From Clostridia bacterium (GTDB lineage Bacteria; Bacillota; Clostridia; Christensenellales; Aristaeellaceae): 64,000 bases of DNA. The position numbers were made by a program, and so were the translations under genes. The DNA is taken from contig JAFRPG010000100.1 in the NCBI GenBank assembly GCA_017429265.1, positions 14,645 to 78,644 on the forward strand, in the 5' to 3' direction. Numbering within the stretch: the stretch's first letter is position 1; each line of letters starts with the position of its first letter. A model generated the notes under the pieces. That model was not told where the DNA came from, did not search any database, and was given only the letters and a program-made list of their open reading frames with translations. This document shows positions 6,172 through 59,422 of the stretch, piece by piece.

Positions 6172-6250
6172 GCTCACATCTCCTGTCTCTCCGGTCGGGA
6201 GGTGTTTTTCTGTGCTCACCCTGTGCCCTGTCTGTCCGATGAAAACCATC

Positions 6251-7003: not shown

Positions 7004-7015
7004 CGCACCCTCCCG

Positions 7016-8971: not shown

Positions 8972-9007
8972 GCTGCCACCTCCTTTCTTGTGGGATTCCG
9001 TTATTGC

Positions 9008-9841: not shown

Positions 9842-11822
9842 CGCTGTTCTTTTCGAATTCGCTGTCTTCCGTCCCGGCGGTTTCTTCCCCGCCGAGTTCC
9901 TCGATCGTCGCCTCGATGCTCACCGGCTCTTCCCGCTCAAGCGGCTTGCCGCTCATCAGGGCCAGGAATTCGCTGCGGCTGACAGTCATCTCGCGCTTGA
10001 GCGTTTCCACCAGTGCGTTCAGCTCGTCGCGGTGCTCCGCGATGATCGCCTTCGCGCGGTCGTAGCACGCGTCGAGCATCTTCTTGACTTCCGCGTCGAT
10101 CTGCGCGGCGACATTCTCGGAATACTCGCGGCTCTGGCCGAACTCCATGCCCACGAAGACCTCCTGGTCGCTGCCCAGATAGATCGTGCCGAGGGCCTCG
10201 CTCATGCCGTACTGCGTCACCATCCGGCGGCAGAACTCGGTCGCCCGCTTGAGGTCGGAGGACGATCCCGTATAGACCTCGCCGAGGATGACTTCCTCCG
10301 CCGCGTGTCCGCCCAGCATCATGCAGATCATGTCGAGCATCTGGGAGCGGCTCATGCTGTCGTGCTCCTCCGCCGGGAGGGCCAGGGTGTGGCCGCCGCT
10401 CTGTCCGCGCGGCATGATCGTCACGAGGTGGACCTCATCGCAGCCGGGCAGGAAGTGGCCGACCACCGCGTGGCCGCTCTCGTGGACCGCCACCATGTGC
10501 TGGTCCTTCGGATTGACCTTGTGGCTCTTCTTCTCCGGGCCCATCTGCACGCGGTCGATGGCCTCGATCAGGGTCTTCTGATTGATGTCCTTGCTCTTGC
10601 TGCGGGCAGCCAGGATCGCGCCCTCGTTGATCACGTTGGCGAGCTCCGCGCCCGTGGAGTAGGGCATGCGCTTGGCGATGTTGTCCAGGTCCACGTCCGC
10701 GGCCAGGGGCTTGTTCTTGCTGTGCACCTTCAGGATGGCCACGCGGCCCTCCTGGTCCGGATAGTTGACGGTCACCTGACGGTCAAAGCGGCCGGGACGC
10801 AGCAGGGCCGGGTCGAGGATGTCGCGGCGGTTCGTGGCCGCCATCACGATGACGCCCTCGTTCACGTCAAAGCCGTCCATCTCCACCAGCAGCTGGTTCA
10901 GGGTCTGCTCGCGCTCGTCGTGACCGCCGCCGAGACCGGCGCCGCGGTGACGGCCGACCGCGTCGATCTCATCGATAAAGACGATCGACGGGGCGTTTTT
11001 CTTCGCCTGTTCAAACAGATCGCGCACACGGCTCGCGCCGACGCCGACGAACATCTCCACGAAGTCGGAACCCGAGATCGAGAAAAACGGTACGCCGGCC
11101 TCGCCAGCCACGGCCTTGGCCAGAAGGGTCTTGCCCGTGCCGGGAGGGCCCACGAGGAGCACGCCCTTGGGGATCTTCGCGCCGAGGCTGGTGTAGGTGG
11201 AAGGGTTGCGGAGGAAGTCGACCATCTCCTCGAGCTCTTCCTTCTCCTCGTCGGCGCCGGCCACGTCCGCGAAGGTGACCTTGTTCTTCTCCGGATCCTG
11301 CATGCGGGCGTTGGAGCGGCTGAAGTTCATCACCTTGCTGCCGCCGCCCATCTGGCTCCGCATCATGAAGTACCAGATCATCACCACGACGCCCATCATA
11401 ACCAGATAGGGAATGAAGTCCAGCAGCCAGGAGCGCGTCACGGGCGCCCGGTACTGGATCTTGAAGCCGAGATCGGCCGCCGTCAGGGTTTCCGCATCCT
11501 TCCCGGTCGCCGCGGCGATGATCCCCTTCGCGTCCTCGATGAACTGCACGTCGCTGCCGATCGTGGTCTCGAAGTCATAGTCGTTCTCCGGGAAATCCCG
11601 CTCCTGCACCCTGGAGCCGGTAGCCTTCACGCCGACCAGGGAGGTCCCGCGCATGGCGACCGCCTTGATCTCGCCGTTCCTGACCATCTCCAAAATCTGG
11701 TGATACTCGACCCGCCTGTTCTGACCCGCGCCGCCCAGGGCGTTGTTCAGCATGATGGCGATCAGAAGCATCACACCGATAATAATGACATAACTCATCA
11801 GACCTCTGTTGGTTTTTTTCAC
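9831..11822 (-). CDS. ftsH: ATP-dependent zinc metalloprotease FtsH
   Basis: Walker A GPPGTGKT, zinc site HESGHA, N-terminal TMs. GTG start 7 nt after AAGGAGG; the track start at 11840 lies inside the RBS. Confidence 0.92.
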
Positions 11823-11899
11823 AGAAAGGTCCTCCTTCATCCAAGAATCGGTGCGAACACCGAAAAGAAATTATACCATAAACAGTTGCTTTTTGCAAA

Positions 11900-12463
11900 T
11901 CAGTCCGTCTGCTCGTAGATCCGGGGCGCCAGGACGCCGATATCGGGTAAATTACGGTACTTTCCGTCATAGTCGAGGCCGTACCCGACCACGAAGGCGT
12001 CCGGGATCTGGAAGCAGGCGTAGTCCGGTTTCAGGTCCACCCGGCGGCGGGCCGGCTTGTCGAGGAGCGTCGCGATACGGATCGATTTCGCGCCCTTGTA
12101 CTTCAGGTGGCCCAGGAGGAACTTCAGCGTCATGCCGGAGTCGATGATGTCCTCCACGATCAGGATGTCCTTGCCGGTGATATCGTGGTCGAGGTCCTTG
12201 CGGATCTGCACAACGCCGGTGGATTCGGTCGCGCTGCCGTAGGAGGATACCGCCATGAACTCGATGGACACGGGCAGATCCAGTTCGCGCATCAGGTCGC
12301 TGAAGAACACGATGGCGCCGTTGAGGATGCCCAGAAGCACGGGCTCCTTGCCGGCGTAGTCCCTGGTGATCTGTTCGCCCAGTGCCTTCACGGACGCGGC
12401 GATCTCTTCCTTGGTGACCAGGATCCTGTCCAGATCCTTGTAGATGACGGCGTTATGATCCAT
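11900..12463 (-). CDS. hpt: hypoxanthine phosphoribosyltransferase
   Basis: PRPP-binding ILIVEDIIDSGMTL. Conserved tilS-hpt-ftsH order. Confidence 0.9.
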   Translation of the reverse strand: MDHNAVIYKDLDRILVTKEEIAASVKALGEQITRDYAGKEPVLLGILNGAIVFFSDLMRELDLPVSIEFMAVSSYGSATESTGVVQIRKDLDHDITGKDILIVEDIIDSGMTLKFLLGHLKYKGAKSIRIATLLDKPARRRVDLKPDYACFQIPDAFVVGYGLDYDGKYRNLPDIGVLAPRIYEQTD

Positions 12464-13808
12464 GCTGCTCCTCCTTCAGGGTCCAGGGCATGCTGCCCTC
12501 CCAGGTGAATGTGACGGTGTCTGTCGTATCGGGATGATCCGTCGCTGTCCCGCCCTCGCCGCGTCCGAGCCCGGCCGCGTGCAGGACGGTCTTCCCCATG
12601 CAGATCAGGGGGACCCGTGCGCGGAAGGAGCGGTCCACCTCCCGCTGCCGGAAGTAGTCCTCCAGCGGACGCCTGTGTCCGCTGTGCGGCGGCAGGATCG
12701 TGTCGCCCCGGCGCGGTGTCCTGACCGTGAGCGACGGCAGCAGCGCCGCCGGCACCGTCAGACTCACACGGTCACCTGCACCGCTCTCCGTCCGGACCAG
12801 ACGGCAGCCGGAGAGGACGACTCCGGCGGATCCGTCCAGCGGGTACACCGGCGATGCGGACGTTTCCGTCCCGGCTTTCAGGTGTAGGCAATGCCTCTCG
12901 CGGAAGGCCCGCAGGCCGCCGGGCAGATTGCAGCAGCCGCCTTCCGGCCCCAGGGCCGTGCGCATCAGCTCCTCCGTCTGTTCCGCGGAGAGGCTGCGCT
13001 CATCCGGCCCGTCCTGCGCTTTCCGGGCCCACCAGGTCCGGAGCGCACGCCGCTGCAGGCCGGTCGGCAGTCTCCGCAGGGGCGGCAGCCACAGCCAGTC
13101 CTCCCCCGCGTTTCTGTCCAGGAAATCCGCCGTCAGCGCTTCCAGTGTCCGCAGATCCTCCCGCAAAAGTTCCGCCGTCTGCGCGATATGCCTTTCGGCC
13201 TCCGGGCTTACGCCGCGCATGACCGGCAGCACCTCGAGGCGCACCCGGTTGCGCAGAAAGCCCGTCTCCTCGTTCGTCGCGTCCTCGCGCCAGTCCTGGC
13301 CGATTCCGCGCAGGCACTCCCGCAGTTCCCCGCGCGTCCGGCCGAGCAGCGGGCGCACGATCCGCATGCCGTAGAGTTCCGTCTCAGCCTCCATGCCGCA
13401 CAGGCCGCGCAGGCCGGCGCCGCGCAGGAGGTGCGTCAGGACCGTCTCCGCCTGGTCGCCGCGATGGTGCGCCAGCGCCAGGGCCTCGCATCCGGTCACG
13501 TCCATGGCCCGGCGGAAGGCGGCATAGCGCGCGTCGCGGGCCGGGCCCTCTCCGGTCCCAAGTGCCAGCGACAGACGCTCCACGGTCAGGTCCACGCCGA
13601 GGCTTTCGCACAGGATGCGGCAGAAGGCCTCGTCGCCGTCGGACGCCTCGCCGCGCAGGCCGTGGTTCACATGGACAGCGGCGATCCGCTTGCCGGACAG
13701 GCAGCACAGGATCCGCAGCAGCGCCACCGAATCCGCCCCGCCGGAGAGTCCGACCAGGATGCTGTCCGGCAGCGGAGCCAGCCGGGCCGCGATCTCTTCC
13801 GGACGCAT
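12453..13808 (-). CDS. tilS: tRNA(Ile)-lysidine synthase
   Basis: PP-loop VGLSGGADSVALL. Start placed at MRPEEIAARL (ATG 13808), directly after the upstream stop; the track ORF extends further. Confidence 0.85.
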   Translation of the reverse strand: MRPEEIAARLAPLPDSILVGLSGGADSVALLRILCCLSGKRIAAVHVNHGLRGEASDGDEAFCRILCESLGVDLTVERLSLALGTGEGPARDARYAAFRRAMDVTGCEALALAHHRGDQAETVLTHLLRGAGLRGLCGMEAETELYGMRIVRPLLGRTRGELRECLRGIGQDWREDATNEETGFLRNRVRLEVLPVMRGVSPEAERHIAQTAELLREDLRTLEALTADFLDRNAGEDWLWLPPLRRLPTGLQRRALRTWWARKAQDGPDERSLSAEQTEELMRTALGPEGGCCNLPGGLRAFRERHCLHLKAGTETSASPVYPLDGSAGVVLSGCRLVRTESGAGDRVSLTVPAALLPSLTVRTPRRGDTILPPHSGHRRPLEDYFRQREVDRSFRARVPLICMGKTVLHAAGLGRGEGGTATDHPDTTDTVTFTWEGSMPWTLKEEQHGS

Positions 13809-27176: not shown

Positions 27177-27371
27177 CGGATCGGCCTCCGTCGCGCAGCG
27201 CGGGCGCTGCAGAATGCTTCATTCCGCGCCTGTCAGCGGCGGAAAGGGCTTGTGCGTAGTATAACAGCTTTCCTATCAAAATGCAATATTCGCGGTGCCT
27301 TCCGGACAGGGCGGAACCGCGGACCCGCCGTCCCTCCGGCGCTGCCTCCGCCCGCCGCCCGGCGGCAAAGC

Positions 27372-27407
27372 AAAACCCCTCGCGAACGCACATCCGCAAG
27401 GGGTTTT
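27372..27407 (-). terminator. native tRNA-Trp terminator, now stranded behind the orphan 3' tRNA fragment
   Basis: AAAACCCCT...AGGGGTTTT hairpin plus T-run on the minus strand, immediately after the 24-bp repeat. Confidence 0.6.
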
Positions 27408-27410
27408 ACA

Positions 27411-27434
27411 CAAGCAGGGGCTGAAGGATTCGAA
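27411..27434. repeat. att repeat (orphan 3' end of tRNA-Trp)
   Basis: CAAGCAGGGGCTGAAGGATTCGAA, identical to 34149-34172. The sequence beyond it cannot complete a T-arm or acceptor stem. Confidence 0.9.
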
Positions 27435-27523
27435 TTCTCCGGATGCCATTTTGCCTCGTTTTGTATCATCTCGCAGCCGTTGAGTTTAGCCACTTCGCAA
27501 ACCAAGAGTCTATGTAAGTATGA

Positions 27524-27567
27524 GAGGGTATTAGAATATCAAGGGTATTTGTAAGGGTACAAGGGTC
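27524..27567 (+). promoter_or_regulatory. cluster of AAGGGTA direct repeats (candidate integrase arm-type sites, left end)
   Basis: GAGGGTA 27524, AAGGGTA 27541, AAGGGTA 27553, AAGGGTC 27561. The same motif occurs twice at the right end (34069, 34081). Confidence 0.45.
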
Positions 27568-27897
27568 AGACAACATTTGTCTTCTTTTTACTCCTAGAAA
27601 TCACCTCTAGCACTACCATTATTCCGCATCTTCCTGTGGTTCATTTGTGCCTCCACTGTGCTTCCTTCATTTCAATGCTAACTTGTGTATAAACACATCC
27701 AGCTTATGATATCTATGCCCCAGAAGGCTGAGTATTCGTCTCTGCTTTCCGCCTATGTCTGGTCTCTTCATTTTTAGCTGTTTTCGGACCTCATGTAGTC
27801 GCTGGATCAAATCCTTATGTTAATGGTCTGACGGTCAATTCTCCCTGTCCTCTGCTTTCCCTGCAGTTTGCTCTCCCTTCCTTGTGCTTTCCCGCTT

Positions 27898-28200
27898 TCA
27901 ACCGTACATTATATATTGACGGACAAGGTACGCACTTTCTTCGTCCAGCTCATAGCTCCAGATATCGAGGTATTCATCCCGGCTTTCCTTGTTCTTCCAA
28001 TTCTGCAACATGAGTCCAGCAGCGTCAATCACTAGATAGCCGCTCTCAATTTCCCAAAGGTCGCGCCCATACTTCTGCCGCCATTCTACGTTATCCGCGA
28101 TCATTTCAGTATCAGGCTTATCAATACATTGCACCATGTGGGTGTCGTAGCGGTAGCGGAAAGTCCGCTTTCCACGTTTATAAGGCTTGCTGTATTTCAT
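27898..28200 (-). CDS. hypothetical protein (island cargo, 100 aa)
   Basis: MKYSKPYKRGKRTF... with AAAGGGGA RBS. No motif recognised. Confidence 0.6.
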   Translation of the reverse strand: MKYSKPYKRGKRTFRYRYDTHMVQCIDKPDTEMIADNVEWRQKYGRDLWEIESGYLVIDAAGLMLQNWKNKESRDEYLDIWSYELDEESAYLVRQYIMYG

Positions 28201-28429
28201 GGCTTAGTTTCCCCTTTCTTCTGCTTTCCGGATTAGTTGATGAGGCCGTTCTTCAAAGATCAACAAGAGCTGGTTTTGTCTCGTCTGTTAGATTCAGAAA
28301 TCTCAACGTGTAGAGAAACTTTGATGGTAGCTTTTTGTCATAGTGATTCCTCCTGTCGATTTTGCTGATCAGTTCACAAGAAACAAGGACTATACACTTT
28401 ATCACCACCCTTTTATGCTTGCATGTCGG

Positions 28430-28704
28430 TCATGTAAAGCAGAAACGGCAGACAGTAGAGGTCTTGGCAAACCGGACGAAGGTGTCAGGCTCGGTGGCTT
28501 TCAGAACTTTTGTGTCCAGGCGTGAAGAGGTTACGACTTTCCTGCTTGCTTTCCAACCGCTGCCAGTTATCTCTTCCGTTCCGGCATCGATCATTGCGGA
28601 TTTGAAGCTGTCGCGGATGGCCTCGGCCTGGCGGTCAGTTCGTCAATCTCGTTTTGGATTTCCCGCAGCTCATCGGCTTTGCTGTCGAGTTCGTGAATGG
28701 TCAT
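28430..28704 (-). pseudogene. Gp157-like/phage small protein interrupted by a 1-nt deletion
   Basis: MTIHELDSKADELREIQNEIDELTA then a frame change at GCCAGG (about 28627-28634). The next frame reads AEAIRDSFKSAMIDAGTEEITGSGWKA...VTSSRLDTKVLK...RFCFT*. One extra C restores a ~91-aa ORF. Confidence 0.6.
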
Positions 28705-29046
28705 TCTGGGAGCCTCTCTTTCTGCCTTGCGGCGGTCGTGGTGGAAATGGGTGAAGTTGATCCATCAGAATGGTTTGGGTCTAACAGCAGAAGACGGGAC
28801 GGTCAGACCATCCGGGACGGTGAGCGTGTTTGCCGTGCCGTGCTGACCGGGTCGCAAGCGGCCTTATGTCTTCTGTCTGTTCGCCGGGTATGGCTTGCCC
28901 GGCATACCGCATTACTCTGTCTGTCGTCTATATGATCTTCGTTCGTGTCGCGGTTTCCTCTTTATGGACCTGCCATCATCAGCGCCAAGCGGTCAATCCT
29001 GGCGGACGGTCAGCCGATCTGCTGGCCGTTTCGGCTCGTAGGGGTT

Positions 29047-29535
29047 TTATGCCGGAAGCGTTACGCTTGCCCAGTTGGCGGAGACAATGCGCTCGCTGCC
29101 GTATTTGGCTTTGATCTCGTCAAGAGTCTTCTTTCCACCCTTTGTACAGATGTCGCTATCATCGCGGTAATACCAGGCTTTATGTGAGTGACTCCATCGG
29201 TATCCTGCCGCCTTCAGTTCGTCCCGGCACGGGTATGTGTTGCCCGTTGCCCATAACCAGCGACCTACCAATTCAAGCACAATATCAGGATAATGTGCTG
29301 CAACTTCGACAGCCCGTCGGAATGCATCGGCATCAAACACGCTGTAATCCGTGTTAACCTTCTGTCCAGGCTTGCTATCTCCGGCGAGCCGTTCGGCGGC
29401 TTGCTCATATTGCCGGTTTACTTCCTTCATGGTTTCATCTGAACCGCCATGATCTGGATGGTACTGCATCGCGGCCTTGTGATAAGCCTTCTTCAACTCT
29501 TCGACAGAGGTGCAATGATCAAAGTATTTTGTCAT
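29047..29535 (-). CDS. J-domain (DnaJ-like) protein with an unknown C-terminal domain
   Basis: LKKAYHKAAMQYHPDHGG (HPD motif). C-terminus LELVGRWLWATGNTYPCRDELKAAGYRWSHSHKAWYY. Start set to MTKYFDH. Confidence 0.8.
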   Translation of the reverse strand: MTKYFDHCTSVEELKKAYHKAAMQYHPDHGGSDETMKEVNRQYEQAAERLAGDSKPGQKVNTDYSVFDADAFRRAVEVAAHYPDIVLELVGRWLWATGNTYPCRDELKAAGYRWSHSHKAWYYRDDSDICTKGGKKTLDEIKAKYGSERIVSANWASVTLPA

Positions 29536-29555
29536 TTCTGAGACGCTCCCTTCCG

Positions 29556-29687
29556 TTACAGTCTGTTCTCCCTGATCCACTGAATCCGCTTCTCCAATCG
29601 TTTGTAGTCCTCTGTCTCAATTTCTGTTTCTGTGACCAGCTTGCAGATCAACATGGACAGAATGTCTTTCCAGTTATCCCTTGTCAT
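29556..29687 (-). CDS. small hypothetical protein (43 aa)
   Basis: MTRDNWKDILSMLICKLVTETEIETEDYKRLEKRIQWIRENRL*, with GAGAGGGG upstream. Packed between the 136-aa ORF and the J-protein. Too short for the ORF track. Confidence 0.4.
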   Translation of the reverse strand: MTRDNWKDILSMLICKLVTETEIETEDYKRLEKRIQWIRENRL

Positions 29688-29768
29688 ACTGTACCCCTCT
29701 CTTGGCTTGCCATCATCAGCGGACAGGTTGCCGTCCTGCCCGGACCGGGAAGAGCTCCCGGTTTCGGC

Positions 29769-30179
29769 TTATGCAGTCTGCAATGCTGGGTCCTGTACAA
29801 TGATCCCGTACCGTGTGACTATGTTTTCAATGGCTTGTTTCGCGGCCTTCTTTTGCGTGGTCTCATATATGCTCGGGCTACCGAGTGTGGTATCTGCTTC
29901 ATAAACATGGGTGATTGTCATGGCTTTACCGTCATCGCTCATTGTCACAACGTTATACATCTCTGTGTAAAGACGCTCACTCCTGATGTCCACTGTCAGC
30001 TCAATAGTAGGATTGTCGCGGCCTGCAAGGCGCTTTGCAATGTAGCTGATAGCATTCTGGGTAGCGGTATAGTCGCCGATCTCGAAGAAGGAGAATGTTT
30101 CGGTTCGGTTGATCACGCTGCCGAGTGCAGGTTCATAGATATGGCTGCGAGTTGTGGCGTTTACAGTGAAGGTTGTCAT
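29769..30179 (-). CDS. hypothetical protein (island cargo, 136 aa), first gene of the leftward operon
   Basis: Start MTTFTVNATT after AAAGAAAGAGAGGGA. No motif recognised. Confidence 0.6.
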   Translation of the reverse strand: MTTFTVNATTRSHIYEPALGSVINRTETFSFFEIGDYTATQNAISYIAKRLAGRDNPTIELTVDIRSERLYTEMYNVVTMSDDGKAMTITHVYEADTTLGSPSIYETTQKKAAKQAIENIVTRYGIIVQDPALQTA

Positions 30180-30214
30180 CTGGGATCCCTCTCTTTCTTT
30201 AGTCGATACTTGTT

Positions 30215-30260
30215 TACCACCTATTTGTGGTATGCTTAATACTACCACGTTTAAGTGGTA
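30215..30260. promoter_or_regulatory. two TACCAC-N6-GTGGTA operators in the leftward promoter region
   Basis: TACCACctatttGTGGTA at 30215-30232 and TACCACgtttaaGTGGTA at 30243-30260, 28 bp centre to centre. Confidence 0.6.
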
Positions 30261-30345
30261 TTGTGAATGTATGATCCGGCAATTTGTTCTAGACCATATA
30301 ACACATGTTTGTGTTTATTCTCTAATAACCGCTCCTGTCCGCGCG

Positions 30346-30517
30346 CTGCCGGTCCAGGGAAACTGCCGCTGGTTCAGCGAGCTGCCGCTAGTCCAGGGAG
30401 CCTGCGCCGGTTTAGGGAGCCTGCCGCTGGTAAGGAACCTGCCGCTGGTCCAGGGAGCCTGCCGCCGGTTTAGGGAGCCTGCTGCCGGTCCGGGAGCCTG
30501 CCGCCGATCCGGGGAGC
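30346..30517. repeat. iteron-like array: 9 contiguous 17-20-bp direct repeats (CTGCCGCTGGTCCAGGGAGC consensus)
   Basis: Units begin at 30346, 30363, 30382, 30402, 30421, 30439, 30459, 30479 and 30498. Units 3+4 and 6+7 form a ~40-bp higher-order repeat. A GC-rich block in AT-rich surroundings. Confidence 0.85.
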
Positions 30518-30592
30518 CCACCCTAGGGGAAATGAGCAAAATTATGATCAGCGTTGTTAGTCATTTGAGTAGGCGCTGGAAACAAAAAGGAC

Positions 30593-30621
30593 TTGACTAT
30601 ACCACATTTGCGTGATATAGT
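30593..30621 (+). promoter_or_regulatory. promoter of the XRE gene overlapped by a third operator
   Basis: TTGACT (30593-30598), 17-nt spacer, TATAGT (30616-30621). TACCACatttgcGTGATA at 30600-30617 spans the spacer and -10. Confidence 0.6.
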
Positions 30622-30643
30622 ATTGTTTGAGAAGGAGGTAATT

Positions 30644-30904
30644 ATGTACATGAATGAAAAAGAGATCGTTCGGGCTGCTATTAAGTCCAGGGCCTTGACA
30701 CAGGAAGCGGTTGCAAAAGCCTGTGGGTATCAGCGGCAAAGTAATCTGACACGCCTTCTTGCAAGCGACAGCATGAAGGTCGACAGTTTTCTCATGGTCA
30801 TGGATGCACTGGGATTCGATGTTATTGTCACAGACCATAGCGACGCAACATACTCTTGGAAGCTAGAGAGAATTCATACCGAATCAGCAGATACTATCGG
30901 CTGA
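30644..30904 (+). CDS. XRE-family HTH regulator (candidate island repressor)
   Basis: ATG 6 nt after GAAGGAGG. HTH LTQEAVAKACGYQRQSNLTRLL. Confidence 0.75.
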   Translation: MYMNEKEIVRAAIKSRALTQEAVAKACGYQRQSNLTRLLASDSMKVDSFLMVMDALGFDVIVTDHSDATYSWKLERIHTESADTIG

Positions 30905-32221
30905 TGTGAGAATCAAATACAGTGCCCCGGATGGCTGCCGGAAGCCCTTCTCTTGTACACAACGTTCGAGAATAAAACGTTGCAGCATGTCGCTTTCCGC
31001 TCGATATTCGGCGATCATATCCTTCACACACTGTGGTGGTGTAAGTTTATAGCCATTTTCTATAAAGCGTTTAGCTCCCTCTATTATCCAAGTAAGGATC
31101 GCACCACCACAGTTGTTAACAAGCCAATCAGCATAGTTTTTCTTCTCTCCCGATTGTCCTCGAAATCTGGCATTAAACGGGATTAAGACTAGCCGGTCCC
31201 ATGTGCCATCATCCGTAGCCCGGACCTTGGGTAGGACATTTGTGTAAAGCACGGCGGTATGACTTGGCGTAAAGACGAATCCATCCTTGAATTTGTGTTC
31301 TCCTCGGATGGGATCGGTAGATGAAAGAAGCTTGACGGCTGACGAGTCAAGCCGCTGTCCTTCCCGTAATTCTGCCGCCAAGATAAGACGTTTACCTCTG
31401 AGATCGCCATAGATGAAATTTTTGTTCATCCGAGTGTCTAGTGTCAGGATATCCGCTGGTACGCTGAAGCTATAATCTCCAAGAACCGTTGCTATGGCGT
31501 TGAAGAAGGTTGATTTGCCGTTACCGCCGGGACCGATGGCGATAAAGATTTGTTCACTGTACACTTTACCGATGGCAATCGCTCCCACAACCTCTTGCAA
31601 ATAACACGATAGTTCCTTGTCACTCTCACAGATTGAATCAATGAATTCTAGCCATTTGACGGCTCCATCCCTTGATGGAGAACAACCGGTTATCATGGTA
31701 AGCATGTCTGCAGGGTTATGAGGGTGGACTTCGCCGCTCCTAAGATCAACAGTTCCTGCCGGAGTATTCAAGTATTCCGGGATAGCATCCAGATCTTCAA
31801 TCCTGATCTCCAGATATGGCGCGGCTTCACGAAGAACAGCACTAACTTTGTTTGTCTGCTGATATGTCAGAGCTGATCTCCTATTCATTTGAGCCTGCGA
31901 CTGTTTGTTTCTAGCCTGAGTCGCCTTCAGCTTGTCCCCGTCTCGCTCTGCCTGTTGTTCTTCGATAAGGGCTAATTTCTCCATATTGGACGCGATGTCT
32001 TCTTGAGTCTTCACCAGCTCATGCACCGCCCGCCTTGCATTCTGATCACCCATAACCCAACGTTGGCCATCAAATGACATCCAGCGCGTTGCTTCAGAAT
32101 AACACAGTTTATTTTTGTATCGACTAGCCAGGACGCTCGCTTCTCCAACATCTGTGAAGTGTGTAGGAAAGATTTCAAGGAGGTGGTCGTCATTGATAGG
32201 ATTTAGATGGATTTTGCTCAC
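30884..32221 (-). CDS. D5/P4-family SF3 helicase (phage/plasmid primase C-terminal domain), candidate Rep
   Basis: Walker A AIGPGGNGKST, Walker B LILAAE, D5_N-like N-terminus. No obvious primase (AEP/toprim) domain. Confidence 0.8.
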   Translation of the reverse strand: MSKIHLNPINDDHLLEIFPTHFTDVGEASVLASRYKNKLCYSEATRWMSFDGQRWVMGDQNARRAVHELVKTQEDIASNMEKLALIEEQQAERDGDKLKATQARNKQSQAQMNRRSALTYQQTNKVSAVLREAAPYLEIRIEDLDAIPEYLNTPAGTVDLRSGEVHPHNPADMLTMITGCSPSRDGAVKWLEFIDSICESDKELSCYLQEVVGAIAIGKVYSEQIFIAIGPGGNGKSTFFNAIATVLGDYSFSVPADILTLDTRMNKNFIYGDLRGKRLILAAELREGQRLDSSAVKLLSSTDPIRGEHKFKDGFVFTPSHTAVLYTNVLPKVRATDDGTWDRLVLIPFNARFRGQSGEKKNYADWLVNNCGGAILTWIIEGAKRFIENGYKLTPPQCVKDMIAEYRAESDMLQRFILERCVQEKGFRQPSGALYLILTSADSIC

Positions 32222-32291
32222 CTTTACATCTCCTTTCCGGTGAGATCACTTTGCTTTCCTTTGTCTCTGTTGATATGAGGTCATACGCCAT

Positions 32292-32510
32292 TTACCTCAG
32301 GGCATCCTGTGCCTCGGCATGGAGAGCATCTAGGAAGATGGGAACATCGACCAGAATTGTAGTTCCTGCACGTATGACCGGCAGACGTCCTTCATGAAAA
32401 CGCTTTCGAAGTTCAAATTCGCTGATGCCCGTTCGTTTCGATGTTTCACGAATAGTCGCAAAAGGTTTTGTTCCAAGTTCGGCTGCTTGAGGTTTGGTTA
32501 TCTTCGTCAT
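32292..32510 (-). CDS. excisionase/MerR-like HTH DNA-binding protein
   Basis: FATIRETSKRTGISEFELRKRFHEGRLPVIRAGTTILV (HTH_17-like). Start set to MTKITKP. Confidence 0.65.
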   Translation of the reverse strand: MTKITKPQAAELGTKPFATIRETSKRTGISEFELRKRFHEGRLPVIRAGTTILVDVPIFLDALHAEAQDALR

Positions 32511-32864
32511 TTCATTGCTCCTTTCTCGCAAAATAGACAAAAAGCGCCTTGTGCATTTCTCGCACAAGGCGCCGTCTTATCATAGAACGGAGTATCACCG
32601 TTCGCCCATATCGTAGCACTTTCGGCAACACATGTCAAGCCAATTTCACGACCAAAATACTCTTGCCAAAACCATACTTCTGTGATATATTATATAAGGA
32701 AACAATATATCATCACTTTAAATATCACGTAAGCATTTATGAAATTATTTTTACACTATTCTATAAAACGTGATCTTCCCACTATTGATTCAGAAGGATT
32801 CCAAAAGACTTTGGGGGATTCTGCGATACTCTGCAAGATTCTTGGAAAAACGGAGGTAACCCAA

Positions 32865-34049
32865 ATGGCAACAAAAAAGAGCAACACGAGAGCCGCAAAC
32901 GGAAACGGGACAATTCGTCAGCGTGCTGATGGGAGATGGGAGGGTCGCCTAACCGTTGAGTGGGATGCCGGAAGCGGAAAGCAAAAACAACGCTCCTTCT
33001 ATGGATGGAGTCAAAAAGAGGTCGCAGAAAAACTGCGGGCTGCTGCTGTTGAACGAGATAAAGGTCTCAACGTCAAAACGCCGGAGAAAATCACTGTCTC
33101 CTCCTGGCTTCAAACATGGTTAACGACATACTGCACCACAATTAAACCGAACACGCTATACACCTACAAAAAGCAAGTTGATTGCCGGATAGTCCCTGCA
33201 CTCGGCGCTGTTAAACTGACTGCACTTCGACCGGACCAGGTGCAGAAATCCGTGAATAATCTTACGAAGGGTGATGATCCGCTTTCCCCCAAAAGCATCA
33301 AAAACTGCGTTGCTGTCCTGCGTTCAGCCATGACCAGGGCTGTCCAGAATGACCTGATTCGGAAGAACCCTTGCGATAACGTAGAACTTCCCAAAGCAAA
33401 GAAAAAAGAAATCCAGCCATTGGACGAGACCGGTATCGCTGAGTTTATGAAAGCCATAAGCGGCCATCATAACGAGCTCATATTTAAGATTGCATTGTTT
33501 ACGGGTATGCGTCAGGGGGAACTGATGGGTCTAAAGTGGAGTGATATAGATTTTGACAAGGGATTGATCACCATTCAGAGACAGCTTGTACACGGAAAAA
33601 CCAAGGGAACGGGTTACAGTATGGCCAGCACAAAAACAGATGCTATCAGGACCATCAGACCCGCTCCCCTAGTGCTGGATTGGTTAAAGTCATGGCAAAA
33701 AGAACAATCCGCTTTACGTCTTCGTTTCGGTAAACAGTGGGGTGACAATTTCGGTGGATTGGTTTTCACTGATGTCACCGGTCAACATCTATGTCATTCA
33801 ACATTGACACATGAAGCCCGGCGTTTCGGGAAAGCTATTGGCAAACCGGATCTACGCTTTCACGATCTTCGGCACTCGTATGCGGTCATGTGCATACGAG
33901 CTGGAGATGACTTTAAAACTATCAGTTCAAACTTAGGTCATACTACCATCACGATAACAATGGATATTTACGCAGCGTTCACAAACGATATGGCCCTGGC
34001 TTCGTCAAACAGAATGACCGCATATATGCAGAGTATCGGGGTAGGTTGA
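32865..34049 (+). CDS. int: tyrosine-type site-specific integrase
   Basis: R (TGMRQGEL), H-x-x-R (HDLRHSYA), LGHTTITITMDIY catalytic Tyr. ATG after GGAGGT. Lies adjacent to the tRNA. Confidence 0.9.
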   Translation: MATKKSNTRAANGNGTIRQRADGRWEGRLTVEWDAGSGKQKQRSFYGWSQKEVAEKLRAAAVERDKGLNVKTPEKITVSSWLQTWLTTYCTTIKPNTLYTYKKQVDCRIVPALGAVKLTALRPDQVQKSVNNLTKGDDPLSPKSIKNCVAVLRSAMTRAVQNDLIRKNPCDNVELPKAKKKEIQPLDETGIAEFMKAISGHHNELIFKIALFTGMRQGELMGLKWSDIDFDKGLITIQRQLVHGKTKGTGYSMASTKTDAIRTIRPAPLVLDWLKSWQKEQSALRLRFGKQWGDNFGGLVFTDVTGQHLCHSTLTHEARRFGKAIGKPDLRFHDLRHSYAVMCIRAGDDFKTISSNLGHTTITITMDIYAAFTNDMALASSNRMTAYMQSIGVG

Positions 34050-34068
34050 TGCCTCTTTGAAGGCTAAT

Positions 34069-34087
34069 AAGGGTAAAAACAAGGGTA
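34069..34087 (+). promoter_or_regulatory. AAGGGTA direct repeats (candidate arm-type sites, right end)
   Basis: AAGGGTA at 34069-34075 and 34081-34087, between the int stop and the tRNA. Confidence 0.4.
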
Positions 34088-34108
34088 ATTGGCCTTATTT
34101 CGGTATGC

Positions 34109-34143
34109 AAAACCCCTTGGAAACGCTTGATTTCCAAGGGGTT
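34109..34143 (-). terminator. element-supplied terminator for the reconstituted tRNA-Trp
   Basis: AACCCCTTGGAAA-loop-TTTCCAAGGGGTT followed by TTTTG on the minus strand. Begins and ends like the native terminator at 27372-27407. Confidence 0.6.
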
Positions 34144-34148
34144 CCGCT

Positions 34149-34172
34149 CAAGCAGGGGCTGAAGGATTCGAA
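34149..34172. repeat. att repeat (3' end of the intact tRNA-Trp)
   Basis: Identical to 27411-27434. Confidence 0.9.
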
Positions 34173-34223
34173 CCCTCAACAAAGGTTTTGGAGACCCACG
34201 TGTTACCATTACACCAAGCCCCT
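34153..34223 (-). tRNA. trnW: tRNA-Trp (anticodon CCA)
   Basis: Hand-folded: acceptor AGGGGCT/AGCCCCT, D arm GTGT-AATGGTA-ACAC, anticodon loop CTCCAAA, T arm GAGGG-TTCGAAT-CCTTC, discriminator G. CCA is not encoded. Confidence 0.85.
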
Positions 34224-44485: not shown

Positions 44486-44513
44486 AGCATGCGTGCGAAG
44501 GATATCGCACCAC

Positions 44514-44535
44514 GGTCGCATGGCTCAGTTGGTAG
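44514..44535 (+). other. orphan 5' fragment of tRNA-Val (22 nt)
   Basis: GGTCGCATGGCTCAGTTGGTAG is identical to 44567-44588. It is followed by 31 unrelated nt and then the full tRNA. Confidence 0.8.
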
Positions 44536-44566
44536 CGCCTACTGCTACCTTTGAGTAAATGCACAA

Positions 44567-44639
44567 GGTCGCATGGCTCAGTTGGTAGAGCACATCGTTC
44601 ACATCGATGGGGTCACAGGTTCGAGTCCTGTTGCGACCA
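44567..44639 (+). tRNA. trnV: tRNA-Val (anticodon CAC)
   Basis: Hand-folded: acceptor GGTCGCA/TGCGACC, D arm GCTC-AGTTGGTA-GAGC, anticodon stem CATCG/CGATG with loop TTCACAT, T arm ACAGG-TTCGAGT-CCTGT, discriminator A. Confidence 0.85.
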
Positions 44640-44648
44640 CACACCCAC

Positions 44649-44687
44649 GAAGAAGCTTGAGAAATCAGGCTTCTTTCTTTTTTGCCT
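44649..44687 (+). terminator. terminator after the intact tRNA-Val (element side)
   Basis: GAAGAAGC-loop-GCTTCTT then TTTCTTTTTT. Confidence 0.6.
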
Positions 44688-44739
44688 CGCCTCCCTGGGG
44701 GGTACAAAAATCGGCTGTTACAGGGTACATTCTCTTGGC

Positions 44740-44876
44740 GTGAACAGAATAGGCGGACACTCCGTACACGCCCATATAGGTGTGAACGGATTGGTCGCTG
44801 AATGTGAACGGGATGCCGGAATTGATGTGAACGAATTGCTGGCTTTGGTGTGCACAGATTGCCTTTTGATGTGAAC
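44740..44876 (+). repeat. six GTGAAC-core direct repeats at ~22-bp spacing
   Basis: GTGAAC at 44740, 44782, 44804, 44827 and 44871; GTGCAC at 44850. Extended consensus tGTGAACnnAtTG. Confidence 0.75.
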
Positions 44877-44939
44877 CGTAGCCCGGATACACAGAAAAAG
44901 AACAGGGCCGAAGCCCTGAAAGAAAACTTCTCGACCAGG

Positions 44940-46514
44940 TTACTCCTGGCCGAGGAATTGCTGCATGGAAATTCTGAACTGAATGTGGAGCTTATATCCA
45001 GTGGTTACCTCCACGCGCTGAATGAGTCTGGTTACAATCATATGCTTGGTACTGATGTCAGCCGCCTCATAACAATCGGCCCATGAGACGAGCTCATCGA
45101 TCTGCGCCTTCGTTTTCTTAGCATTCGATGCTTCTTCCTCCGTGCGAGCTTTGGCGTCAACCATGGCTTGGCGGGCGGTTTCAAGCTTTGCCCGGTGCTT
45201 CAACAGCATGGAATTGACGACATTCAAGTCCAGCGCACTTTCACCGGTCAGCGCTTTGACCGCTTCCTCCTCCAGCGCCGTTACCTGCTTCTGGGCATTT
45301 TCAAAATCTCTCTCGGCCTGTTTATATGCGATCCGATAGGTCTCTTCATTCCTGGCACTCGCCATTTTCACCATCTTCTCACGAGGTACCGACTTTACCT
45401 TGGCAAAGAATTCCCGTACTTGATCCTCAACTGCTTGATTAATGACGTTTGCCTTGTAAGCGGATTGCCCGTCGCATGACTTCCTGGATGAAATTTTCCG
45501 GTAGCAGCGGTAAACCTCATAATCATATGCTGCAATTGATCCATCAGCAAGTGCTCTTTCGTCATGGTGGTGGTTGAAAGCGAGCCGGCAGCCGCAGTGA
45601 GCGCAGTAGAGAATGCCGGAGAGCAGGCTCCTAGAATCCGTACGTAGTGGTGTCTCCAGATCGTTGCCAGCCGTTTTTGTGCATCGGCCCTTTACTGTTT
45701 GCTGACACCTGATGTACATGTCTTCATCAATGATCTTGAGATGTTCAAACGGTTCCGATTTCGCTCCCTGCATATGGTATATTCCGATGTAGATGGGATT
45801 ATCGATGATTGCCCGGATTGAAGTACCCCGCCAAAGCGTTGTTCCCCGCTTCGTCTTGATTCCCTTATCATTCAGGTACTGGGCGACACGGTTTGTACCA
45901 TATCCACGGTTCGTCAGCAGATCAAAGATTTCTCTGACAATTGTTGCTTCCTCTTCGTCAACAACCAGATCTTTGACAGGCTGGTTTTTCTTGTTTGTGC
46001 GCCCATGATACTCCAGTTTGTAGCCAAATGGAAGCTTTCCTCCGCGGTACTGACCCTCTTGCACCATCTGCATATGTTTCGTTTTTACGCGGATGGAGGT
46101 CTTTTCACTTTCTCCGGACGCCTGCCAAAAACGGATGTAGTTCAGCAGTTTGTCCACATGATTGTCAAAACGCTGCTCCCCTTCCCTTGCGCTCCAGACC
46201 TCAATTCCCTGCTGAGCAAACCACTGGACTACAAAGGGCGTTTCATCGTCACGTCTGCCGAGGCGGTCGAACATGAAGACCAGCAGCACATCGAACTGAT
46301 GCGTGATAGCCCTCTTTTTGATCTCGACGATGGCATCCCGAGCATTGGCGCTGACCTTGTAACCAGAAACGCCCTTCTCGGAAATCTCATCTACAATCTC
46401 CCAATCCGGATGTGTCGCTGCATACTCGCGACAGGCCAGTTTTTGCATCGGGATATCATCGTGATCCACCTGGCCAACAGTGGAAACACGGTAAAGGCAA
46501 ATCACCCGTTTCAT
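44940..46514 (-). CDS. large serine recombinase
   Basis: N-terminal resolvase domain (VICLYRVSTVGQ), recombinase domain, zinc ribbon (CAHCGCRL...YRCYRK), coiled coil. ATG 6 nt after GGAGGTG. Confidence 0.9.
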   Translation of the reverse strand: MKRVICLYRVSTVGQVDHDDIPMQKLACREYAATHPDWEIVDEISEKGVSGYKVSANARDAIVEIKKRAITHQFDVLLVFMFDRLGRRDDETPFVVQWFAQQGIEVWSAREGEQRFDNHVDKLLNYIRFWQASGESEKTSIRVKTKHMQMVQEGQYRGGKLPFGYKLEYHGRTNKKNQPVKDLVVDEEEATIVREIFDLLTNRGYGTNRVAQYLNDKGIKTKRGTTLWRGTSIRAIIDNPIYIGIYHMQGAKSEPFEHLKIIDEDMYIRCQQTVKGRCTKTAGNDLETPLRTDSRSLLSGILYCAHCGCRLAFNHHHDERALADGSIAAYDYEVYRCYRKISSRKSCDGQSAYKANVINQAVEDQVREFFAKVKSVPREKMVKMASARNEETYRIAYKQAERDFENAQKQVTALEEEAVKALTGESALDLNVVNSMLLKHRAKLETARQAMVDAKARTEEEASNAKKTKAQIDELVSWADCYEAADISTKHMIVTRLIQRVEVTTGYKLHIQFRISMQQFLGQE

Positions 46515-46519
46515 TCTGA

Positions 46520-46843
46520 TCACCTCCGACTGAAGTTGGCGCTGCTAAGCATTGTCAGTACATCTGCCAAGGCCGTCTCATCTGGTTCGTCTGCAAAAGA
46601 AAGCGTGATTTCGCAGAAAGGCTGACCAGCGAAAAGCCTAGTGTTTACAGACTTTCTACGCTTGATAGCAGTAGTACTATTGGCTCTGTTGCCGGTACTA
46701 ATCAAGTTATCATTCGGAGATGATTCTGTTATGTTTTCTGGTTGTGTGGACACTGTCAGATCTGCGCTCTGTAGCCCGTTCCGTCGGCAGAATGCCTTCA
46801 CCGACCCAAGCGGAACCTTAAGCTCGCTGGCGATCGTGGCATC
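46520..46843 (-). pseudogene. remnant ORF with an HTH-like segment, N-terminally truncated by an in-frame TAA
   Basis: The frame reads *DATIASELKVPLGSVKAFCRRNGLQS... with no plausible start before the HTH. The track start (46801) is a GTG inside the HTH. Confidence 0.35.
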
Positions 46844-46967
46844 TTAGTCACCCGGACATAGATTCATTCTTAAGCGTATCCCGTTCCGTTCTTATCACGA
46901 GGCCTGTATGGTTTGCTCCTGCGATGACCGCTTCCGTCCGCACCATCATCGGACATCTTGATTTTAC

Positions 46968-47054
46968 TACTAACGTTATTAGTTGTCAATATGAAATACT
47001 TGCGTTATTAGTTCATGAGTGTTATCATCACTATGGAGTGTTATCATTACAATG
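46968..47054 (+). promoter_or_regulatory. two sets of direct repeats upstream of the RHH gene
   Basis: TACT[AA/TG]CGTTATTAGTT at 46968-46984 and 46997-47013. Tandem 19-mers GAGTGTTATCATCACTATG / GAGTGTTATCATTACAATG at 47017-47054 abut the RBS. Confidence 0.6.
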
Positions 47055-47065
47055 GAGGTGAGCCA

Positions 47066-47278
47066 ATGCCAAAGAAACAGACAGAATGGTCAAGAGCATA
47101 TAACGAAAAAACCTATGACCGTCTCGCAATAACAATTCCCAAGGGCCGTAAGGCAGATGTGGAGACTTTAGCCTCCAAGGCCGGGGAATCCGTCAACGGT
47201 CTTATAAACAGCCTATTGCGTGATGCAATGGGCAAAACCGAAGAAGAATGGAAGAGTAAACCAGTGCGTGATGAATGA
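47066..47278 (+). CDS. ribbon-helix-helix (CopG/Arc-like) DNA-binding protein
   Basis: YDRLAITIPKGRKADVETLASKAGESVNGLINSLLRDAMG. ATG after GGAGGTG. Confidence 0.7.
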   Translation: MPKKQTEWSRAYNEKTYDRLAITIPKGRKADVETLASKAGESVNGLINSLLRDAMGKTEEEWKSKPVRDE

Positions 47279-47639
47279 ATGGGTACGCCGATATGAACAG
47301 CCTTCCGCATGGTGATGCCATTCAATACCATTCATGACGCCTACGGCAGGCCGGCGGACAGCTGTATAACCGCGCGATGGCGAATGCCTTGCGTTCGATG
47401 CAAACAGTTTCGTGAATGAAGACGCGCGTGATATGCACCACATCATCCGTGATATGAACAAGAATGCAGCCAACCTATGCGCATAAAAAAACGCCCAATG
47501 GGCTGGGTGCAAACGGGTGCAGATTTGGGTGCAATTCTGAAACATGTGTGCACGTCTCAACAAGTCAAAATACGTGATGTGGCTTGAATCGTATGCTTGC
47601 ACACGTCTCTGCATGACCAGGCACGTGACATCCTACAAA

Positions 47640-47660
47640 TTCGAGTCCTGTTGCGACCAC
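47640..47660. repeat. orphan 3' end of tRNA-Val (att repeat)
   Basis: Identical to 44620-44640. Confidence 0.9.
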
Positions 47661-59177: not shown

Positions 59178-59179
59178 TA

Positions 59180-59422
59180 TCAGTTCCTCCCTCTCCAATA
59201 AGCATCATTCTCAACCGCAATCCTGATCTTCTCTGCGCATTCCGTCTGCGTAACTTCGTCTTTCTCCAGCCACTTCACCAGTTCTGCAGTCAGGAACGCA
59301 TCCAGCAGCCGGTTGACCACCCGGATTACCTGCAGCTCATCGTCCTGCCGATAGCAGAACGTCGGCAGACTGTTCTCCCCGTGGGAAGATGCACACCGCA
59401 GCTTGTACGGCACCCACATCAC
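59180..59422 (-). CDS. small hypothetical protein
   Basis: 80-aa ORF between the 278-aa orphan and the LRR gene. No motif; start uncertain. Confidence 0.3.
   Translation of the reverse strand: MMWVPYKLRCASSHGENSLPTFCYRQDDELQVIRVVNRLLDAFLTAELVKWLEKDEVTQTECAEKIRIAVENDAYWRGRN

Follow-up and report, generated by a model that had tools for sequence, protein, structure and literature searches.

Minimal satellites are already known in several forms, among them the islands termed PICMIs, the Type C phage-inducible chromosomal islands (PICIs) and the StCI islands of Streptococcus thermophilus. The SatelliteFinder model of a PICI has five core components, namely an integrase, a regulator (a homologue of alpA, merR or stl), a primase-replicase, capsid morphogenesis and terS, and elements with three of these five, designated Type C, account for more than 6000 hits that are described as ambiguous, in that they may be satellites, defective PICIs or other elements (PMC10085698). 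The defining set of PICMIs is an integrase, AlpA (PF05930/PF12728) and a DUF3987/DUF5906 primase next to fis in Vibrionaceae, and they have large non-coding regions, pseudogenes and no packaging or capsid-remodelling genes (PMC10803314). The StCI of S. thermophilus are Type C/D PICIs in Firmicutes, which excise, undergo induction by virulent phages and use competence to spread (PMC13376191). Here we analyse an island of 6,738 bp in a tRNA-Trp gene of a high-GC Clostridia bacterium metagenome-assembled genome (MAG), where it is inserted between a GH127-like gene and mgtE, within a 64-kb stretch of one contig (JAFRPG010000100.1, positions 14,645 to 78,644; hereafter the window, in whose coordinates positions are given unless another locus is named). 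We read it, at about an even chance of being right, as a PICI-type "hitcher" integrative island that is mosaic and partly decayed, with impaired replication and with any transfer dependent on a helper. A preliminary description, made from the letters of this DNA alone, had presented such minimal satellites as little described in the host lineage, which overstates their novelty given the three families above and the islands of similar size that we find in other Oscillospiraceae. In the literature searched, no Type C-like small island has been characterised from rumen or gut Clostridia.

The two ends of the island are marked by CAAGCAGGGGCTGAAGGATTCGAA, a 24-bp sequence that occurs exactly twice in the 64-kb window, at 27411-27434 and at 34149-34172, with an expectation of 0 from shuffled sequences. 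Since an intact tRNA-Trp (CCA) lies at 34152-34223 on the reverse strand (ARAGORN; Rfam, 61.1 bits), the right copy, or attR core, is the 3' end of the functional tRNA and the left copy, or attL core, identical to it at 24/24 positions, is an orphan. The repeat continues imperfectly past this core (27397-27439 versus 34135-34177, 86%; 27370-27389 versus 34107-34126, 85%), because the element has a look-alike terminator of its own, and a hairpin GCAAAACCCCT...AAGGGGTT follows each of the two copies. The left hairpin with its T-run (27370-27410, reverse strand, read from the sequence) is the native terminator of tRNA-Trp, stranded in the chromosomal flank at attL, as can be told from its presence in an alignment with the same flank of strains that carry a different island. 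The right hairpin (34107-34148, reverse strand) is borne by the element behind the rebuilt tRNA and is 85-86% similar to the native terminator region; the closest relative of the element (locus L018, described below) has a homologous terminator hairpin at the same position. The element would thereby supply its own tRNA 3' end and terminator, so that the tRNA would stay intact after insertion. The GC content, 0.67 in the left flank and 0.62 in the right flank against 0.48 in the interior, indicates a foreign origin, and the island in tRNA-Trp is a discrete integrative element that is both foreign and site-specific. The direct repeat, its identity with the tRNA 3' end, the native terminator beside the orphan copy and the AT-richer interior had all been proposed in the preliminary description, and each was borne out on recomputation; the extension of the repeat past 24 bp had escaped it. 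From the two ends, the attP junction of this element reads ...CCAAGGGGTTCCGCT-CAAGCAGGGGCTGAAGGATTCGAA-TTCTCCGGATGCC... and the empty attB reads ...GCAAGGGGTTTTACA-CAAGCAGGGGCTGAAGGATTCGAA-CCCTCAACAAAGG....

At least 7 public contigs carry the element, 100% identical over 6,920 bp and always at this tRNA-Trp. Its source samples include SRR12529044, SRR12529037 and those underlying ERZ28018901, ERZ27256812 and ERZ28019165. Other assemblies of the same species, with flanks that are 95.6-100% identical, hold a different island of ~7.1 kb (island B) in the same tRNA-Trp. The tRNA-Trp site is thus a polymorphic hotspot and the island is not fixed in the chromosome. Furthermore, several metagenome contigs end exactly inside tRNA-Trp, which indicates that variants coexist within one sample. 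Exact look-ups of both flanking proteins returned only the element, island B or contigs broken at the tRNA, with no empty site among them, and the attP of this element was not found on any contig. A degenerate attB/attP/attL/attR pattern had no match in the JGI metagenomes, a pattern of the core plus the left interior (attL/attP) had none in IMG/VR, and no near-identical DNA was found in 50,697 phage records or, by megablast, in 72,556 plasmid records. A ruminant-gut origin is suggested by the provenance of the sequences, as L010, an island B locus, belongs to a record with the label XIEF21 and a water-buffalo rumen MAG supplied a related locus.

Island B has a direct repeat that is longer than that of the window element (~50 nt in the alignment; a 93-nt blastn match at 86%), and its crossover site therefore differs. 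It is seen at 2457-9651 of L005 (GCA_017539465.1, JAFYGW010000002.1) and also in L007, L008 and L010, again between the GH127-like gene and mgtE and at 47% GC. It encodes an integrase of 324 aa, an SH3_3 protein and no fewer than three small Cys-rich open reading frames (ORFs) that are paralogues of one another, along with tRNA-Lys(ttt) and tRNA-Thr(cgt), and it also has a weak match to holin_6_1.

The right-hand part of the window element, module 1 (30917-34148), carries the integrase gene (int) together with genes for an Xis-like protein and a Rep helicase. A tyrosine integrase is encoded at 32865-34049 on the forward strand (PF00589, 1.1e-23; PF14659; phrog_1, 2.9e-71), and the positions assigned as catalytic (R216, H333-x-x-R336, H359 and Y369) are invariant in an alignment of its relatives. 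Exact AAGGGTA heptamers number four in the 64-kb window, all of them within the two ends of the element and in the same orientation, with two copies 107-125 nt inside attL, two copies 62-80 nt inside attR and degenerate copies alongside. On the left arm the repeats are GAGGGTA, AAGGGTA twice and AAGGGTC (27524-27567, forward strand) and on the right arm AAGGGTA twice (34068-34088, forward strand), and their placement, judged by the heptamer count in the window and by the attP of L018, is that of arm-type integrase sites. We propose that Int would recombine the 24-bp core identical to the tRNA-Trp 3' end, aided by the AAGGGTA arm sites on both arms.

At 32292-32510 on the reverse strand lies the gene of a 72-aa Xis/AlpA-like helix-turn-helix (HTH) protein, which matches the Cox-like excisionase family phrog_575 weakly (3.6e-4) and has no Pfam match, with PF05930 and PF12728 included in the scan. 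A consensus scan places a promoter for the xis-helicase operon at 32638-32610, and in the leader between this promoter and xis a terminator-like hairpin with a 13-bp stem and a T-run (32543-32573, reverse strand). The operon would be transcribed leftward from the promoter and then through the leader terminator, and the predicted hairpin hints at read-through/antitermination or attenuation control of its induction. Judging from the intact integrase residues and att sites, the island can probably still excise and integrate, and to this extent the earlier statement that it can integrate and replicate stands.

The closest relative, L018, is a 4.9-kb Logan contig (SRR30829488) whose integrase is 78% identical, whose Xis, the gene in the same position as that of the 72-aa HTH protein, is 45% identical and whose helicase is 58% identical to those of the element; there is no tRNA on the contig. 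Its int is adjoined by the terminator hairpin, a pair of TACCCTTG arm sites and the core, and across the core follows a homologue of the left arm of the window element. Compared with the attP built from the two ends of the island, L018 matches at 22/23 positions of the core, 27/28 of the right arm-site block and 33/35 of the left block, and all three are collinear. Because the arms and core of L018 are contiguous without a tRNA, a sister element exists unintegrated, whether as a circle or in tandem. A further relative, L019/L028 from a Clostridia MAG of the buffalo rumen, has 57% identity in the integrase and 51% in the helicase and adjoins tRNA-Trp. Beyond these, close relatives of the integrase reach no more than 31% identity in IMG/VR and no more than 48% in the JGI metagenomes, with no further sister elements in either.

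The helicase, in contrast to the integrase, is incomplete, and it is on replication that the earlier statement fails. Encoded at 30884-32221 on the reverse strand (Pfam, PHROG), it is a superfamily 3 protein of 445 aa (D5_N + DUF5906, PF19263) whose Walker motifs are intact, with Walker A residues that coincide with invariant columns of the alignment. Its homology to every relative ends at aa 435 of 445, at about position 30916, and the convergent gene of an XRE-like regulator has its stop codon 12 nt away. A C-terminal Pox_D5 domain is present in 5/5 close relatives tested and is absent from the window helicase, in which Pfam and PHROG scans also find no primase domain; the element further has no equivalent of orf172, which precedes the helicase in the relatives. 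The best PDB match of the helicase is 7ola_A, a "DNA primase", and 7OLA is cited in the paper on PriRep5 of SaPI5 (PMC9371898). In SaPI Rep, a C-terminal winged helix binds iterons directly downstream of rep, and this C-terminal domain is required for full ATPase and helicase activity (PMC9371898). By alignment position (query 412 falls at chain residue 695, with the C-terminal domain starting from 682), Pox_D5 would correspond to the origin-binding C-terminal domain of SaPI Rep.

L018 carries, at 3755-3847 and starting 26 nt past the stop codon of its full-length helicase gene, two copies of GGTGAC, a 63-bp AT-rich spacer and two copies of GTCACC, which together look like a textbook SaPI-type origin directly after the helicase. 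In the window element such an origin is absent, no GGTGAC/GTCACC-type iterons lie outside int, and the position after rep is taken by the abutting convergent XRE-like gene. Hence, of the two features of a SaPI-type replicon, namely a Rep winged-helix C-terminal domain and inverted iterons with an AT-rich spacer 3' of rep, L018 has both and the element has neither. Since the helicase has lost its Pox_D5 domain and the SaPI-type origin is missing, autonomous replication of the island appears doubtful. We propose that module 1 was joined inside the 3' end of the helicase gene, at a recombination scar, to an unrelated and phage-derived module 2 (27435-30916), and that the scar would have removed both the C-terminal Pox_D5 domain of Rep and the SaPI-type origin that the sister L018 has kept. 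The helicase truncation and the lack of a primase had gone unnoticed in the preliminary description, as had a frameshifted gene and two hammerhead ribozymes in module 2.

Module 2 would consist of an XRE-like repressor with three operators, a GC-rich array of nine 20-bp units and a leftward operon. None of its genes (XRE, orf136, orf43, the J-protein gene and orf100), nor the array, is present in any of the related loci. The XRE/HTH_37-like regulator is encoded at 30644-30904 on the forward strand, convergent with the helicase gene and overlapping it by 21 nt; its HTH_37 match (4.6e-5, 23.6 bits) lies below the Pfam cut-off of 27, it also matches phrog_1373 and phrog_2339, and it has no relative in the phage records (tblastn) or the fetched loci. 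The XRE and Xis-like genes named in the preliminary description are thus present, with weak or sub-threshold matches as their support. Two exact operator-like palindromes TACCAC-N6-GTGGTA (30215-30260, with starts at 30215 and 30243) overlap a leftward promoter predicted at 30267-30239, and a third with 1 mismatch (30600-30617) lies inside the XRE promoter predicted at 30593-30621, where 0.7 sites of this type are expected in the whole window. With the array between them, the three predicted operators resemble a classic repressor switch, and on the simplest reading the XRE protein would repress the cargo operon and its own gene and in this way regulate the island. The motif GTGATATA was considered as a second operator class and dropped, as it is not above chance.

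Between the operators, at 30343-30517, are nine tandem units of ~20 bp with the consensus CTGCCGCCGGTCCAGGGAGC (TRF score 181-212; 84% column identity in the unit alignment). The array has 71% GC versus 47% for the rest of the element, and none of 190 fetched loci apart from the copies of this element has its unit, which is absent from IMG/VR as well. Nothing ties it to the window helicase. In composition the array matches the host or a high-GC phage, not the island.

The leftward cargo operon, of ~2.3 kb, begins with orf136 (29769-30179, reverse strand), an ORFan for which a word-indexed search of 5.8 billion proteins returned only itself; in a full HMMER scan nothing but the repeats of giant proteins matched it, and those weakly. 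Its single-sequence AlphaFold model (pLDDT 69) has no Foldseek match at E <= 0.001 or TM > 0.4 in PDB/BFVD. The small orf43 (29556-29687, reverse strand) is annotated as a gene in public assemblies and has no homologue in Pfam, PHROG or the fetched loci. It is followed by the gene of a J-domain protein with an HPD motif and a conserved C-terminal domain (29047-29535, reverse strand; PF00226, 1.7e-7; phrog_15863, 3e-39), which has full-length relatives in Enterococcus, Cellulophaga and Fusobacterium phages and one relative that adjoins terminase-like genes on an IMG/VR contig (L015). Next, at 28430-28703 on the reverse strand, comes a frameshifted pseudogene of a ~90-aa phage protein of the phrog_1956/phrog_6244 family, split into ORFs of 37 aa and 54 aa. 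When repaired to 91 aa it matches positions 4-88 of 93 in phrog_1956 and aligns over its full length, at 35-51% identity, with intact ORFs in 15 loci, and the frameshift is identical in all copies of the element. The last gene, orf100 (27898-28200, reverse strand), has one 59% relative among the 5.8 billion proteins, no Pfam, PHROG or PADLOC match and a poor structure model (pLDDT 48). Neither orf136 nor orf100 has a phage match by tblastn, and PADLOC defence-system profiles gave no meaningful match over the element. Beyond orf100, the 463-nt non-coding left end holds 3.2 copies of a 16-nt repeat TCCCTGTCCTCTGCTT (27842-27893; TRF). Copies of a 16-22-nt motif containing CTGCTTTCC are found both downstream of orf100 (27842-27893) and upstream of it (28209-28230).

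Two type II hammerhead motifs lie in this operon, both on the reverse strand and both covering model positions 1-66 of RF02276. One (28964-29036) separates the J-protein gene from the pseudogene and exceeds the gathering threshold of 37 with 41.7 bits. The other (29700-29769) lies between orf136 and orf43 and falls short of that threshold at 32 bits, with its CUGAUGA, GAAA and GUC cores intact. Several hammerheads that flank genes in prophage operons near integrases have been described, and they cleave in vitro (Perreault et al. 2011, PMC3088659). This is in line with the arrangement here, where two type II copies flank a short gene block in a polycistronic unit of an integrase-bearing element. 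The present case differs from the prophage clusters (PMC3088659) in that it lies in a 6.7-kb island, its second copy is below the gathering score and cleavage is predicted. If both are active, the two hammerheads would cut the operon transcript into three, carrying orf136, then orf43 with the J-protein gene, and then the pseudogene through orf100. The two type II hammerheads in a cargo operon and the three predicted operators flanking a 71%-GC array are added to the description here.

Across the whole element, Pfam and PHROG scans of every ORF find no capsid, terminase, tail, lysis, relaxase or secretion domain, and no ordinary structural fragment of a prophage among the cargo. This confirms the gene inventory of the preliminary description, which had also placed the integrase, the D5-type helicase, the J-protein and the nine-unit array where Pfam, PHROG and TRF find them. 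The coding share of the element is 68%, leaving 32% non-coding.

Helicases related to that of the island are encoded at 66 loci in GTDB species-representative genomes. In 7 of these 66 (helicase identity 46-49%) and in the metagenome loci L020-L024 (49%), the helicase is directly followed by genes for a portal, a protease-capsid protein, HNH, TerL and head completion, with no tail gene within ~14 kb, a layout that we take to be that of a capsid-forming PICI (cfPICI). At the other GTDB loci with at least 5 kb of sequence downstream, Phage_capsid is found in 2 of 105 large downstream ORFs, many of which are already host genes. The cfPICI-like loci (L020-L025, L030-L032, L044, L046 and L082) resemble the window element in the helicase (46-49%), in the integrase (44-45% where scored), in the int-HTH-helicase order and in their insertion next to a tRNA. 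Unlike the window element, they carry capsid, portal, protease, TerL and head genes after a full-length helicase, where the island has none of these and has instead its unrelated module of XRE, array and cargo.

Relatives that are delimited by tRNA repeats measure 6.8 kb (L056), 7.3 kb (L050), 8.4 kb (L074 and L086) and 10.8-13.8 kb, so that a 6-8-kb class is recurrent in Oscillospiraceae. L056 has the order integrase, HTH_3 repressor, HTH_17/AlpA, an ORF, a PrimPol-D5 helicase with Pox_D5 and two genes of no assigned function, and L050 shares its int/HTH_3 layout and has three unassigned cargo genes. L056 (tRNA-Val) and L050 (tRNA-Met) are like the window element in their size class, their tRNA 3'-end repeats, the integrase (47% for L056), the helicase (39%) and a cargo of two to three genes. 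They differ from it in the CI-like HTH_3 repressor next to int, the HTH_17/AlpA gene and the cargo, none of which they share, and L056 in addition has a full PrimPol-D5 helicase with Pox_D5 and no tandem repeat array (TRF). L056 is found in a cultured strain, Flavonifractor porci P01024 (NZ_JBBHLB010000006.1, 5986-12831), as an apparently intact 6.8-kb tRNA-Val island with a 25-nt direct repeat, and it could be an experimental model for minimal satellites in Oscillospiraceae.

Applying the SatelliteFinder criteria by hand, the element would rate as a Type C PICI, with at most three of the five components. It resembles PICIs in having its integrase at the end by the att site, a small HTH protein and an SF3 Rep helicase of the SaPI5 PriRep5 type, as well as direct repeats, a GC content below that of the host and no tail, holin or portal genes. 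It is unlike them in lacking terS and a capsid-morphogenesis gene (by Pfam and PHROG; structure searches assigned neither orf136 nor orf100), in a Rep without the C-terminal domain and the adjacent hexamer-iteron origin, in a repressor that is not next to int and in its size of 6.7 kb versus a median of 9.5 kb (PMC10085698). With PICMIs, compared by description, it shares the set of int, small regulator and DUF5906 primase/helicase, the few unassigned genes, the large non-coding stretches with pseudogenes and the lack of genes for packaging or capsid remodelling, and it differs from them in its tRNA-Trp instead of fis site, its Clostridia host, the lack of an AlpA/HTH_17 Pfam match and the lack of recognised defence cargo. 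The only likeness to P4-like satellites is the match of the helicase to primase/helicase PHROGs (e.g., phrog_1883, DNA helicase); of the P4-like components, the psu-delta-sid operon, epsilon and a full alpha primase-helicase, none was found in the element by Pfam or PHROG. The element appears to work like a PICI, a PICMI or an StCI and is not filed as a PICI proper, a cfPICI, a PICMI or a P4-like satellite, because the defining features of these four were looked for and are lacking in part.

The favoured reading of a mosaic, partly decayed PICI-type island builds on the observed anatomy and homologies, the truncated helicase, the frameshift, the polymorphic site and the sister attP. Its satellite-type kinship follows from the closest typed integrase and helicase relatives, which are cfPICI-like elements and 6.8-8.4-kb tRNA islands, and its mosaicism and decay from the break in the helicase, the missing Pox_D5 domain and origin, the pseudogene, the coding share of 68% and the absence of module 2 from relatives. 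The satellite-like character given to the island in the preliminary description is upheld by this kinship; its mobility is not, as no empty site, attP of its own or virome copy was found. Because the island has no means of self-transfer, any spread needs a helper, and transfer, if still occurring, would be wholly helper-dependent, with a phage as the most likely helper. Several points weigh on the other side. All copies are 100% identical, at one site and in one species, so that a single inherited insertion fits them equally as well as recent mobility does. A truncated Rep might still work, the 20-bp array might serve as an origin for some other protein, for instance the ORFan orf136, and the frameshift affects an accessory gene only. 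L018, a fragment of 4.9 kb, could be part of a complete phage, and the same helicase family is common in true gut and streptococcal phages (41-43% identity), which makes satellite versus phage ancestry a matter of degree. Int and Xis activity, the pairing of operators with the repressor, ribozyme cleavage, the loss of replication and helper dependence are all parts of the reading that we infer.

Some of these points lead directly to other explanations. If the short helicase or some other initiator replicated the island from the 20-bp array, it would be a fully functional minimalist satellite in the manner of PICMIs, which excises and, with no packaging genes of its own, is packaged by a phage infecting the same host, either as concatemers or by means of a signal that mimics the helper. 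The set of int, small HTH and DUF5906 is what defines a PICMI apart from fis, and PICMIs too have non-coding regions and pseudogenes (PMC10803314); the intact att sites, integrase catalytic residues and helicase Walker motifs, the tidy regulatory switch, the polymorphic site and the sister attP would all suit a working element, and an array with a host-like 71% GC is as expected of a signal copied from a high-GC helper. We nevertheless consider this reading unlikely, given that the helicase is without the domain that binds the origin in SaPI Rep and the usual origin of the family is gone, that no copy turned up in IMG/VR or the JGI metagenomes, that neither its attP nor an empty site was seen, and that no defence cargo was recognised and no helper phage was identified in the window. 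A more specific version is improbable in our view, namely that a phage of high-GC rumen Clostridia has in this island a working minimalist satellite, in which the array is a copied packaging or replication signal of the helper, not a Rep origin, and the ribozyme-processed operon, with its J-domain co-chaperone and ORFans, is a module for hijacking or interference. The phage-typical features of the cargo (the J-domain protein, the phrog_1956-like gene and the clustered hammerheads), together with the gut and streptococcal phages that share the helicase family at 41-43%, the deletion or recombination scar in the helicase, the low coding density and the chance that L018 is part of a whole phage genome, would instead be expected of the remnant of a temperate phage at tRNA-Trp that later lost its structural, lysis and most replication genes through internal deletions and kept both ends. 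Such a remnant sits poorly with the lack of any structural or lysis gene fragment (Pfam, PHROG), with small islands and cfPICI-like elements as the nearest typed integrase and helicase relatives (versus at most 31% for IMG/VR integrases) and with the intact elements of the same size in other genomes, and we hold it to be of similarly low probability.

The array also bears on another explanation. Tandem iterons of 19-22 bp are typical of theta plasmids, and the ~20-bp units fall in this size range, so that the island might be an integrative mobilizable element or an integrative plasmid with the array as its iteron origin, moved by conjugation through a co-resident relaxase or taken up by competence after excision. 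The absence of packaging genes agrees with this, as does the finding that satellites of S. thermophilus can spread by natural competence (PMC13376191). On the other hand, Pfam and PHROG reveal no relaxase, Rep_trans, coupling protein or plasmid Rep, no oriT is recognisable (and one is not recognisable from sequence alone), none of the 72,556 plasmid records gave a near-identical megablast match, and the kin of the module are phage and satellite elements, which together make this explanation very improbable.

Elsewhere in the window, a second copy of the tRNA-Val 3' end (44615-44640) stands at 47635-47660, with 92% identity, including 21 nt exact. The repeats bracket a segment of ~3.0 kb and 49% GC (44567-47660) with a large serine recombinase (44940-46523, reverse strand) and a 133-aa ORF, and a partial duplicate of the 5' end of the tRNA-Val lies at 44511-44538; the segment looks like a second, even smaller tRNA island. 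Two BspA-type leucine-rich-repeat proteins, 780 and 437 aa long, are encoded in a further stretch of 45-50% GC (55615-59198) just past the 3' end of a tmRNA (60826-61172; Rfam, 165 bits), and neither an integrase nor a direct repeat of the tmRNA end was found there. A helper prophage within the window was considered and rejected, as the low-GC stretches other than the island are this serine-recombinase tRNA-Val island and the BspA-type leucine-rich-repeat genes.

There are very many islands that possess only an integrase, a regulator and a primase/helicase, and such islands have rarely been studied in detail; the present locus offers a compact system, with a tRNA-Trp hotspot that has two occupants, a sister attP, a predicted three-operator repressor switch, and hammerheads together with a phage-type J-protein. 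It also calls for caution in automated satellite calling, as the island seems complete, with its integrase, helicase and "iterons", and its replicon is nevertheless broken at a recombination joint. Should the island be a working satellite, ribozymes and a DnaK co-chaperone would join the satellite toolkit. If it is mobile, minimalist satellites would extend to anaerobic Firmicutes, and if it is not, the locus would document one stage in the decay of a satellite.

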